In this document: one piece after another, positions 28,870-31,896 of the stretch
Layout: every line of letters begins with the position of its first letter
Position numbering within the stretch: the stretch's first letter is position 1
NCBI GenBank assembly: GCA_965205975.1
Contig: OZ242195.1
Location: 2,336,001 to 2,400,000 of the forward strand
DNA: 64,000 nucleotides
Direction: 5' to 3'
Source of the DNA: Candidatus Latescibacterota bacterium
GTDB lineage: Bacteria; Latescibacterota; UBA2968
The notes under the pieces: model-generated
The model's database searches: none
Told to the model about the DNA's origin: nothing
The model's input: only the letters and a program-made list of their open reading frames with translations
Position numbers and translations under genes: made by a program

Positions 28870-29304
28870 TCAAACCAGCTTTTCACCGTCGAAAATCATT
28901 TTGTCCTTTTCGTAAATCGCGCCCGTTTCTTCATCCAACTCGTACTTCATCAACTGCCCCATAGACATATGGTTAAACACCTCTTTGGGATCGCCGTATT
29001 TTTCCAGCAACTTTTCAATCGGACCTTCAAACTCATAGGTTCGGCGTTTGGGCCGTTCGCGTGCTCGGCGCTCGGATTCTTCCTTGCTCAAAATGGGCAA
29101 TCGCTCGGCAGCGGGTCCCAATCGACTCGCGTATTCCTGACGCCTGCGGTACTGATCGTGCCGCTTTTCAACCTCATCTTTGGCCTCTTCTCGCTCCTTA
29201 GCACTGAGCAGATCTCCTGCCCGTTCTGACCACTTTTCCTGTTCGCGCTCGCGCACATCATCGCGGCCCACTTTTCGCATAATATCTCGCAGTGAATCAC
29301 TCAT
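28870..29304 (-). CDS. Hypothetical highly charged protein
   Basis: 144-aa ORF with GGAGG RBS; no family recognised. Confidence 0.7.
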   Translation of the reverse strand: MSDSLRDIMRKVGRDDVREREQEKWSERAGDLLSAKEREEAKDEVEKRHDQYRRRQEYASRLGPAAERLPILSKEESERRARERPKRRTYEFEGPIEKLLEKYGDPKEVFNHMSMGQLMKYELDEETGAIYEKDKMIFDGEKLV

Positions 29305-29473: not shown

Positions 29474-30259
29474 ATGTCCAATATGAAACGACTTATCAAC
29501 ATCATGGCGCGCTTGAGAGGGCCTTCGGGCTGCCCGTGGGACAAAGAGCAAACGCACCAGAGTCTAAAACCCTATCTCATTGAAGAAGCCTATGAACTCC
29601 TCGAAGCGATTGACGACAATGACAATGACGAAATCAAAGAAGAACTGGGAGATCTTTTGCTACAAGTCGTCTTTCACGCGCAAATCGCCAGTGAAGAAAA
29701 CCGATTTACCATAGACGACGTAGCCGAAGCCATCGCCGACAAACTCATCCGCCGTCATCCGCATGTTTTTGGCGACACGCAAGCCGACACACCCGACGAA
29801 GTAATCAAAAATTGGGAAGCCATCAAAGCCGAAGAAAAACCCAACAAAAAAGCCTCCCTGCTCGACGGCGTACCGCAATATCTGCCAGCATTATTGAAGG
29901 CCCGCAGACTTCAGGAAAAAGCCGCGCGAGTGGGGTTTGAATGGGAACACATTGCGGATGTAGCTCGAAAAGTGCGGGAAGAAACAGAAGAATTAATGCA
30001 CGCACGAGAAACCGGCGCAATGGAAAAGATCCAGGAAGAATTTGGGGACTTGCTATTTGCCCTGGTCAATCTCGCTCGATTTCTCCAAATATGCCCCGAA
30101 GAAGCACTCATACAAATCAACAGAAAATTTCAATCGCGCTTCCAGTACATCGAAACCGAACTGAGCAAACAGGACAAAACACCTGATGACGCTACACTTG
30201 AAGAAATGGACGCGCTGTGGGAAGCCGCAAAAAAAGAGAATCAGCCCCAAAAATCGTAG
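29474..30259 (+). CDS. mazG: Nucleoside triphosphate pyrophosphohydrolase
   Basis: GCPWDKEQTH, EEAYE, EELGDLLLQVVFH, RRHPHVF, second EEFGDLLF repeat; AAGGA RBS. Confidence 0.95.
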   Translation: MSNMKRLINIMARLRGPSGCPWDKEQTHQSLKPYLIEEAYELLEAIDDNDNDEIKEELGDLLLQVVFHAQIASEENRFTIDDVAEAIADKLIRRHPHVFGDTQADTPDEVIKNWEAIKAEEKPNKKASLLDGVPQYLPALLKARRLQEKAARVGFEWEHIADVARKVREETEELMHARETGAMEKIQEEFGDLLFALVNLARFLQICPEEALIQINRKFQSRFQYIETELSKQDKTPDDATLEEMDALWEAAKKENQPQKS

Positions 30260-30753
30260 TGTGCAGACAATTCTAAAACGGGAATAGGAGCAGATTCCCA
30301 ATCGTCAATCCAACAAATAATGCTATCACAGGCCATATAATCGAGATTTTCGCGCTCGAAATCACTGCTGCGCAACACAGCGTGCGCTCGAACCGGCAAT
30401 TCATTACTCGACAGAATATAATTGGGAAACGCCTCCTGGGATTTGAGCACCTCAAACCCCAACTTGTCGTAAACCCGAATAAACAACTCGCGGACATTGG
30501 TCGCATTTCGCACAGCCGGATATGTCAAAAGTGGTTCTCGACTGACAGGCGCTAATTGTTTTTCAATAACATCAAGCGTACTCTGGGGAACCGTAATAGA
30601 TTTCGCATTTTTGCGCTCCAATTCAGCTTCGACCCGCTTGAGAGCCAACTCCGCAACCTCTTTGGAATCGCTAATCGACTTCCGCACGCGCTTGCCCTCT
30701 TCATCGTAATACCCGATCCACCACTTCTTTCCCCGCTGATAAAGCCACGCCAT
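30241..30753 (-). CDS. Integrase arm-binding-like domain fused to a degenerate PD-(D/E)XK-like domain
   Basis: N-term LYQRGKKWWIGYYDEEGKRVRKS...KEVAELAL; C-term LGFEV...FPN...SSDF...CDSIICWIDDW...PVLELS; GGGAG RBS. Confidence 0.7.
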   Translation of the reverse strand: MAWLYQRGKKWWIGYYDEEGKRVRKSISDSKEVAELALKRVEAELERKNAKSITVPQSTLDVIEKQLAPVSREPLLTYPAVRNATNVRELFIRVYDKLGFEVLKSQEAFPNYILSSNELPVRAHAVLRSSDFERENLDYMACDSIICWIDDWESAPIPVLELSAHYDFWG

Positions 30754-30790
30754 AGTTGTGCTCCCACCGCAAAACGTCAGTGTGTCTTAT

Positions 30791-30933
30791 ATTAGCCACA
30801 AAAAAAGAGAAAAACAATTTACTTCTGATATTATACAATATATTGTATATCGCTCTCAAAACAAAGCACAATATATAAAACAAAATGTGGCTAATAGCCA
30901 CAAAATGTCCATCAAATAATAATCTAAGCCACA
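30791..30933. promoter_or_regulatory. AT-rich control region with TAGCCACA repeats, an 18-bp palindrome and a minus-strand sigma70-like promoter
   Basis: TAGCCACA at 30793(+), 30886(-), 30895(+), AAGCCACA at 30926(+); TATACAATATATTGTATA at 30832-30849; TTGAGA-N18-TATAAT on minus (30859-30830). Confidence 0.7.
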
Positions 30934-30951
30934 CTTTTATGCAACTCTAAT

Positions 30952-31896
30952 TTACCGAATTTTTTCCCAAACAGTCGCCGCGGCGTGGACATCTTGAATC
31001 GCCAGACCGCTCGAATACGCAATACATCCCTGTCCGCGCAAGTGTTCCAAAAGTCCCAGTGCCGCATGCCCGATATTCAGCACCTCATCCTCGCCTTTCA
31101 CCCAGCGGGGCGTCTCATCTCTCTGGTACAACGCGAGAAACTCGCCCGAATTCAGCACCTGCTCACCGTGATCGGGCACCACAAATCGCCGCATCAACAA
31201 TCCCGGATCCAATTGCGTAGAACGCCCATCGCCCCCAATCACCGAAATATGCACATGGCTTTCCACATCGAATAGAATAGGCTCAGGCGTCGGCACAGAA
31301 GTAAAAATAGCATCTGCCCCATCAATACAAGTCTCAATATCCGCAACCACCTCCAGATCACAGGAAATATCTCCTCCAACATCTGCTTGATATGCCGCGC
31401 GCCTCTCGGCTGTCCTGCTCGTTACGCGTATGGTCTCTGGCACCAGAGCCACATCAATACATCTGCCCATTGCCTGTGCAATGCGTCCCGTCCCCAGAAT
31501 CGCCGCCGTGCGTACAGGCGTCTTCGCCAAATATTTAGCACCCAACGCACCCGCCGCGCCCGTACGCATATTGGTAATATACTCGGCATCAAACGAAATA
31601 CGGTCGCCCCTCCGCACATCTTCCAACTCGATCACAGCGGTTCTCGAACCCAACCGCCCCACCTTGACATCCGAACGCTCTTCGATAACCTTTTGTCCCG
31701 TAAATCTCCCCTTCCACCAGCCCGGCATCACCAGACGAAAAAGGTCCATTTCTCCCTCGCGCGAAACCTCCTCTTTGCGCAGCGGATTGACCATTTTTCC
31801 AAGACCATAAAGCCGAAACGCCTCATCGCAACTCTCGACAAAATCCCGCGTTGTCATCACCGAAGCGATTTGCTCATCTGAAATATACTGTCTCAT
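30952..31896 (-). CDS. Ornithine cyclodeaminase / mu-crystallin family protein
   Basis: ITNMRTGAAG, AAILGTG, SSGLAIQD motifs. Confidence 0.88.
   Translation of the reverse strand: MRQYISDEQIASVMTTRDFVESCDEAFRLYGLGKMVNPLRKEEVSREGEMDLFRLVMPGWWKGRFTGQKVIEERSDVKVGRLGSRTAVIELEDVRRGDRISFDAEYITNMRTGAAGALGAKYLAKTPVRTAAILGTGRIAQAMGRCIDVALVPETIRVTSRTAERRAAYQADVGGDISCDLEVVADIETCIDGADAIFTSVPTPEPILFDVESHVHISVIGGDGRSTQLDPGLLMRRFVVPDHGEQVLNSGEFLALYQRDETPRWVKGEDEVLNIGHAALGLLEHLRGQGCIAYSSGLAIQDVHAAATVWEKIR

Follow-up and report, generated by a model that had tools for sequence, protein, structure and literature searches.

The window considered here, a stretch of 64,000 nucleotides from a Candidatus Latescibacterota bacterium, harbours a gene for a 170-aa protein that is preceded by an array of TGTGG boxes, two promoter candidates, and a pair of boxes of the NrdR type (Table 1). 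The open reading frame (ORF) is intact, as the initial annotation had stated, and its ribosome-binding site can be read 7 nt 5' of the ATG. The neighbours of the gene are mazG and housekeeping genes in 27/27 loci, with mazG as the convergent neighbour in every one of them. The gene on the upstream side differs between loci, so that of the suggested synteny with mazG and an ornithine cyclodeaminase gene only the former part is general (27/27 loci), the latter being kept in part of the genus. A Pfam scan detected no recombinase in the window, and none of the six Phage_integrase matches of the genome falls within it, which agrees with the earlier statement that no integrase is present. A further ORF of 144 aa (28870-29304, minus strand), divergent from mazG and with no Pfam match, is kept beside mazG across three families.

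Table 1. Features of the 170-aa gene, its upstream region, and its neighbours (positions within the window)
Feature	Position	Strand	Remark
mazG	29477..30259	+	convergent to the 170-aa ORF; 3' ends share 19 bp
170-aa ORF	30241..30753	-	arm-type domain and catalytically substituted PD-(D/E)XK-fold domain
Residues 76-165	30259..30528	-	PD-(D/E)XK-type fold; N111, H124, V126, E135, L137 for D, E, E, H, H
Residues 1-47	30613..30753	-	three strands and a helix, like N-termini of tyrosine integrases of about 350 aa
Ribosome-binding site GGGAG	30761..30765	-	from sequence
Proximal half-site TGTGGCTA	30793..30800	-	about 45 bp 5' of the ATG
Promoter candidate P2, TTGAGA-18-TATAAT	30830..30859	-	11/12 consensus positions
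NrdR-type box, proximal	30833..30848		perfect palindrome, inside promoter candidate P2
NrdR-type box, distal	30866..30881		17-bp linker; one of two conserved C/G positions missing
Inverted pair TGTGGCT-N3-AGCCACA	30886..30902		candidate operator, 13 bp below the P1 -10 hexamer
Degenerate tandem half-site GATGGAC	30907..30913	-	TGTGGAC in several relatives
Promoter candidate P1, TTGCAT-17-TATTAT	30916..30944	-	below promoter-scan threshold; conserved in relatives
Distal half-site TGTGGCTT	30926..30933	-	within the P1 spacer
Ornithine cyclodeaminase-family gene	30952..31896	-	upstream neighbour, part of the genus only

Residues 1-47 of the protein are predicted to form three strands followed by one helix, and they show 35-43% identity to the N-termini of five Latescibacterota proteins of 345-368 aa. 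All five are Phage_integrase proteins by Pfam, one is above the PF12167 cut-off, and three adjoin tRNA genes. The 170-aa protein itself matches PF14657 at E 0.018, below the cut-off, and arm-domain clusters of the Atlas stand at 0.94-0.95 to its N-terminal domain. The integrase-like character of the N-terminus, first noticed from the sequence, is borne out by this identity and by the Atlas values. Since the full-length model was poor (pLDDT 57), the fold comparison was limited to residues 1-53, for which the lambda Int DBD scored Z 5.2, level with PH domains. No core-binding or catalytic domain follows, as had been claimed: the protein ends at 170 aa and its C-terminal part is a different fold. 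The likeness to tyrosine integrases (lambda Int 1-64, Tn916 Int; PF14657, PF12167, PF02920) lies in the N-terminal three strands and helix, whereas the 170-aa protein is devoid of the core-binding and catalytic domains, is encoded by a fixed chromosomal gene, and has its candidate sites in a promoter, an inverted pair among them. The six tyrosine-recombinase loci of the genome gave nothing better than E 4.9 against residues 1-50, and no arm-bearing integrase was found in the genome. Two near-identical 558-aa proteins (G000:C1:1573404-1575077 and 2793850-2795523) combine an N-terminal tyrosine-recombinase domain with an AAA-type ATPase.

The C-terminal domain gave a model of pLDDT 93, built from 111 sequences. 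Its best structural matches are AF1548 and a Pyrococcus repair endonuclease (2vld), both at Z 6.3, with XisH (Z 5.4) and MspJI (Z 5.3) among the further ones. The top match is of middling score (Z 6.3, rmsd 2.8, 86 aligned), and most of the 50 structural matches listed are restriction-type nucleases or resolvases by title. Foldseek returned E values of at least 0.07 for this domain. When 1.84 billion representatives were searched, 321 were retrieved at E <= 0.001, mostly across residues 80-165. Among 111 relatives scanned, none had a Pfam match for the C-terminal domain, and many carry HTH or HNH-associated repeats elsewhere in the protein. Moreover, searches of PHROGs, NCBIfam, PADLOC, and PDB sequences with the 170-aa protein gave nothing significant. 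The earlier assignment to a PD-(D/E)XK-like fold is upheld by the well-modelled domain at its middling Z score. Active relatives of the domain occur on viral contigs (13 loci). Two 515-aa proteins, P0048 and P0056, of which the latter is labelled Korarchaeota by its source, carry the nuclease domain twice in tandem, once dead and once live.

In 94 outside relatives, D111, E124, E126, H135, and H137 are present in 94, 94, 93, 92, and 93 sequences, respectively, and not one of the five is kept at its position in 39 orthologous sequences. Their conservation, together with the fold, suggests that these five residues are catalytic. The changes from FPD to FPN and from ExE to HAV, which had been proposed earlier, are real when compared with these relatives. 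To judge from the aligned sequences, the C-terminal domain has lost the presumed catalytic residues of its nuclease family. It shares sequence homology and the PD-(D/E)XK fold with the unnamed family of pattern FPD..ExE..HxH..CDxIxCW, but differs from it in the replacement of the five conserved catalytic-type residues and in being fused to an arm domain instead of HTH or HNH-associated repeats.

A different residue set is conserved in the protein. E89, H124, and D131 are invariant in 39/39 orthologous sequences, of which 30 have H and nine have N at position 111, and E89 is kept in 6/6 distant dead relatives as against 43/94 active ones. These residues (E89, H/N111, H124, D131) might form a rebuilt pocket, by which the protein would serve as a metal or nucleotide sensor or as an arm-targeted nuclease of non-canonical type. 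A precedent is described for mycoplasma WhiA, whose degenerate endonuclease domain has been proposed to be an ATP sensor (PMC11701221). Nevertheless, such a pocket appears rather improbable, as all five family-defining residues are lost, the domain is net acidic (15 D+E vs 8 K+R), and H124 is replaced by T in 2/6 distant dead relatives.

The 170-aa gene has a defined distribution. Out of 168 Latescibacterota genomes, 33 were matched, four of them through integrase N-termini only; the other 29 carry the gene, each in a single copy, and belong to three families. In named records, the close relatives of the protein come from Latescibacterota MAGs. The gene is missing, even by profile search, from at least five related genera (g5, g6, g7, g9, and g10), and its absence from G077 is explained by a contig that stops before mazG. 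The gene tree (14 rows) and the mazG tree (25 rows, deep branches unresolved) give the same genus-level groups. The gene is single-copy and vertically inherited in Latescibacterota. Furthermore, dN/dS pooled over 19 genomes of the genus is 0.11 for the whole gene; by region, residues 1-47 have 0.07, residues 76-170 have 0.08, and the linker has 0.26. This denotes purifying selection, not the strain-specific chimera with neutral dN/dS that the initial annotation had allowed for. One orthologue of the same genus (G079:C248, L170) has a TAG stop at codon 47 with the box array intact, and is either a broken allele or an assembly error. No second, live copy of the nuclease family was found in any of the 29 carriers, and longer fused forms with residues 1-52 were not found among 34 candidates, which is a weak test.

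The upstream region is marked by short repeats with the half-site consensus TGTGG(A/C)(C/T). Exact copies of TAGCCACA start at 30793, 30886, and 30895 and are the only three in the window, while the fourth box, AAGCCACA at 30926, has one mismatch. The four 8-mers in both orientations and the palindrome described earlier are present accordingly, with this one imperfect copy. Four copies of any 7-mer with at least four G+C were met in 0/3000 dinucleotide shuffles of the 198-bp intergenic region and in 26/5616 genome tiles of the same size, so that clusters of this kind are rare, yet not unique in general. In the 5.56-Mb genome, the array is the sole cluster of four among 2940 TGTGG[AC][CT] sites. 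The inverted pair TGTGG-N7-CCACA is conserved in 28/32 loci, degenerate in one, and absent in three, the 32 loci comprising 27 genomes and five metagenome contigs that are not all independent; this answers in the affirmative the earlier question of whether the repeats are kept upstream of homologues. All 29 loci with the pair, strict or degenerate, have a TTG hexamer, 17 bp, and a -10-like hexamer, and in the relatives the pair lies 12-14 bp below the -10 hexamer. The TGTGG boxes occupy repressor positions in the promoter. This conserved promoter, of the sigma-70 type, goes beyond what the initial annotation had noticed, as do the NrdR-type box pair and the resemblance of the 8-mer to a DnaA box.

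With a likeness of at least 85%, contigs from four RNA runs, which belong to three studies, match portions of the gene or of its leader, and they cover neighbours as well. In three of these runs (two studies) contigs end at 30927-30928 without loose letters. P1 predicts a start near 30909 and P2 one near 30823; the contig ends lie about 18 bp upstream of the former and fit neither promoter candidate. An IHF site was considered and dropped, as a perfect match to the consensus occurs in 4/32 loci and nowhere in the window. No LexA box with two or fewer mismatches was found at the promoter of the gene in 32 loci.

The association of the boxes with the gene is close. Neither pair nor cluster was seen in 23 mazG loci that lack the gene, each read for at least 597 bp past mazG (L076 and L077, which carry the gene, and L101, which has no flank, were excluded), and mazG abuts the next gene there. 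Any gene would be lost jointly with its promoter in this way, whatever the binder. Within the same genus, L017 and L019 keep the gene under selection and have lost the boxes, and L018 has two half-sites only. A genome-wide regulon was rejected: TGTGG-N7-CCACA occurs eight times against nine expected, and the copy at 30886-30902 is the only intergenic one. With no second operator in the genome, no regulon is evident. Among 132 genomes, six other matches to the inverted-pair pattern were inspected, of which five fall within long ORFs and the sixth lies where an ORF begins.

The palindrome could also act as RNA, in the form of a hairpin that terminates or attenuates transcription in the leader, instead of being a DNA site. 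It was flagged as terminator-like with a T run, and the T run is kept in L001-L015. However, outside L001-L019 the inner stem pairs are broken in 8/13 loci with no compensatory change, a T run is found in 1/13, and lone half-sites keep the same sequence. A hairpin is consequently a very unlikely explanation of the palindrome, and a DNA site is preferred.

The boxes had been called arm-site-like, and the protein a possible decoy or directionality factor acting on integrative elements. Neither suggestion found support. There is no TGTGG array within 500 bp of the five related integrases, no recombinase is present in the window, and residues 1-50 found no counterpart beyond the E 4.9 mentioned above when compared with the six tyrosine-recombinase loci. 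In a broader form, a decoy against mobile elements would compete for arm sites, act as a directionality factor, or let its dead domain poison active phage-borne dimers. This form can draw on the N-terminus, closest to integrases of which three of five stand beside tRNA genes, on the active C-terminal-domain relatives on viral contigs, on the dead and live tandem copies of P0048 and P0056, and on dif-like sites that adjoin distant relatives. XisH, which is among the top fold matches, is described as a helper of fdxN excision (PMC4853749). On the other hand, the carrier's own genome has no arm-bearing integrase, 29/29 carriers are without a second copy of the nuclease family, the related integrases lack the array, and the low dN/dS and fixed locus would be unlike an arms-race gene. 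A decoy function is hence judged quite unlikely.

Resemblance of the boxes to DnaA sites deserves closer comparison. The 9-mer TTAGCCACA differs from TTATCCACA by one base, and a DnaA-type base occurs in 15/51 half-sites of 13 representative loci, several of these being perfect DnaA boxes. The boxes could be weak sites for DnaA, or for another host regulator, in which case the gene would be a replication-stress gene under DnaA and NrdR control and the protein would bind elsewhere. In some relatives the corresponding positions hold perfect DnaA boxes, which speaks for this, as does the placement of an NrdR pair beside DnaA boxes, the layout known from E. coli nrdAB. Additionally, the residue aligned by eye with P423 of E. 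coli DnaA, a DNA contact (PMC5043019), is K or E in the class, so that DnaA specificity could differ. The base at position 4 argues to the contrary. It is G in 108/132 CCACA sites at the locus, a count dominated by one genus, and in 36/51 half-sites of the 13 representative loci, as compared with G in 14/148 and T in 120/148 sites downstream of dnaA in 30 genomes (chance pentamers included). Neither TTAGCCACA nor ATAGCCACA was ever seen downstream of dnaA in these 30 genomes. The DnaA matrix of B. subtilis has G less often than any other base at this position, namely in 1/150 (PMC4447404 Table S3).

Geometry and location point in the same direction. The opposed 9-mers overlap by 1 bp, whereas boxes I and II of DARS are 5 bp apart (PMC6868365), and the locus lies 1.8 Mb from oriC. 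Weak DnaA sites are accordingly considered unlikely, and binding by the 170-aa protein itself remains the preferred reading of the boxes. The locus is 0.56-0.86 replichore from dnaA in 14/15 single-contig genomes and 0.17 in one. As for the element as a whole, an origin was rejected (skew minimum at 4.160 Mb, dnaA at 4.178 Mb, locus at 2.367 Mb), and so was a DARS- or datA-like element, as the geometry differs and the array is never seen without the gene. What the array has in common with DnaA-box clusters (oriC, DARS1/2) is 9-mers one base off TTATCCACA, in tandem and inverted, in an AT-rich spacer; what sets it apart is the G at position 4, the 1-bp overlap in place of the 5-bp spacing, the distance from oriC, and its constant company with the gene.

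In L001-L015, two 16-bp NrdR-type boxes occupy the AT-rich spacer between the TGTGG boxes, 33 bp from start to start. The pair keeps a constant distance to the ATG, and the stretch above it is of variable length. Its occurrence is restricted to 15/19 loci of a single genus, and no other genus has it. The published NrdR pattern (C4, A6, T11, G13, 14-17 bp linker) is passed by 10/15 loci of the genus and by none of the other 17 loci; one position is missed by the window, L002, L003, L005, and L015. In shuffles of the spacer, a pair of this type arose 38 and 62 times of 20000. NrdR binds and represses at linkers of 15-17 bp (PMC12051234), and box positions C4 and G13 are described as critical (PMC13584703); the window's distal box is without one of these. 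The nrdR gene is present in the carrier's own genome and in 17/17 relatives. With a matrix made of eight boxes upstream of nrdR from four of the 17 relatives, the locus ranks 3rd genome-wide, a rank that changes to 6th when an AT-rich background is used, and the promoters of nrdR and of the reductase fall within the top four, the rank of the nrdR promoter being dependent on the training set. The proximal box sits inside promoter candidate P2, as at nrdR.

The likeness to the NrdR regulon consists of two partly palindromic 16-bp boxes that overlap a promoter and whose linker falls in the tolerated range of 14-17 bp, while the putative target here differs in not being ribonucleotide reductase, in being restricted to some members of a single genus, and in the imperfect distal box of the present genome. 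Genome-wide, the NrdR-type pair of highest rank (G000:C1:4242274-4242320) coincides with a strong promoter that follows the reductase gene, some 200 bp ahead of the next ORF and over a leader with inverted repeats; it is a possible RNA or relic promoter. Another NrdR-like pair, at G000:C1:25733-25780, lies at the leader end of a CRISPR array and may equally be an IHF-type site.

A wider group of proteins has the dead domain in common and a shorter N-terminal module. Four distinct loci of this group have upstream DNA (L056/57, L059, L060, L061/62; L058 has none), and the TGTGG array is absent from all four. TGAAC-N4-GTTCA with at most one mismatch lies just upstream in 3/4 of them. The same motif precedes lexA in the carrier's own genome, and from this we take it to be a LexA-type box. 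The uvrC gene adjoins three of the four distinct loci and lexA the fourth, and Lhr was identified by Pfam at one distant locus. Three distant loci have a site 190-550 bp upstream, presumably dif-like, whose right arm matches the site at the genome's skew maximum; in the window's own genome a dif-like site at G000:C1:1482493 is within 400 bp of the GC-skew maximum. Dif-like sites at L056 4700, L060 4698, and L061 724 stand within clusters of uvrC, Lhr, lexA, sigma-factor, and dead-domain genes, which are either terminus regions or Xer-integrated repair islands. Sigma genes also flank the distant dead-domain relative in L060. In the window's own genome, a sigma-70-like ORF (G000:C1:2334396-2335487), 1.6 kb before the window, is preceded by a perfect TGAAC-N4-GTTCA box as well as by an NrdR-like pair and is, by sequence, a candidate damage-inducible sigma factor.

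Taken together, the 170-aa protein may be regarded as a domesticated DNA-binding protein that is built from two parts of mobile elements, represses its own gene, and has a link to DNA metabolism, a reading to which we give a probability of about 0.5. The arm-type domain would read TGTGG(A/C)(C/T) half-sites, and the acidic, non-cutting nuclease fold would pair two subunits. It is proposed that, by virtue of this pairing, a dimer sits on the inverted pair immediately below the -10 hexamer. Bound there and at the flanking half-sites, it would repress its own gene; such autoregulation is plausible from the arrangement of the promoter. Since L017 and L019 keep the gene without the boxes, the selected function would not be autoregulation alone. 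NrdR would provide a second input in the genus, repressing at high dATP. The NrdR and LexA contexts suggest a link to DNA metabolism, and any output beyond autoregulation would most likely lie in DNA replication or repair.

One conceivable output is competition with DnaA at oriC when dNTPs are low, the protein being an NrdR-gated reader of DnaA-box-like DNA. Binding of oriC boxes, which lie near dnaA at genome positions 4,177,800-4,178,000, is conceivable since in relatives the promoter of the gene can have perfect DnaA boxes in place of the usual ones. This extension is very doubtful; if true, it would constitute a lineage-specific checkpoint, made of an integrase head and a dead nuclease, that couples nucleotide supply to the initiation of replication.

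WhiA and XisH are also among the closest known systems. WhiA/DUF199, which the protein resembles in its logic, is described as a transcription factor composed of a degenerate invasive endonuclease domain and a separate DNA-reading domain (PMC3781837, PMC11701221). It consists, however, of LAGLIDADG and HTH parts, whereas the present protein has a PD-(D/E)XK fold and an arm domain, and no regulon was found for it. There is no Pfam or NCBIfam match to that family, and the fold differs; by analogy, the 170-aa protein may share WhiA's way of working although it does not belong to the family. XisH, which acts with XisI as a helper of XisF, resembles it as a small, recombination-linked protein of the PD-(D/E)XK fold (Z 5.4), but XisH is described as a likely endonuclease, and neither a partner gene nor a recombinase is near the 170-aa gene. 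A limited, word-matched search of the literature retrieved neither the protein nor its architecture.

If the proposed function is true, a regulator of the WhiA kind would have arisen a second time by an independent route, with the DNA-reading head of an integrase and a disabled restriction-type fold kept under selection in three families. With a candidate operator and promoter at hand, the proposed regulator lends itself to direct tests in E. coli. The NrdR regulon gains a member that is not a reductase, provided that the NrdR pair is real. Furthermore, two repressors of DNA metabolism appear, from their boxes, to control members of the family, NrdR here and a repressor of the LexA-type box in the distant relatives, and this two-repressor control points to a role in replication or repair.
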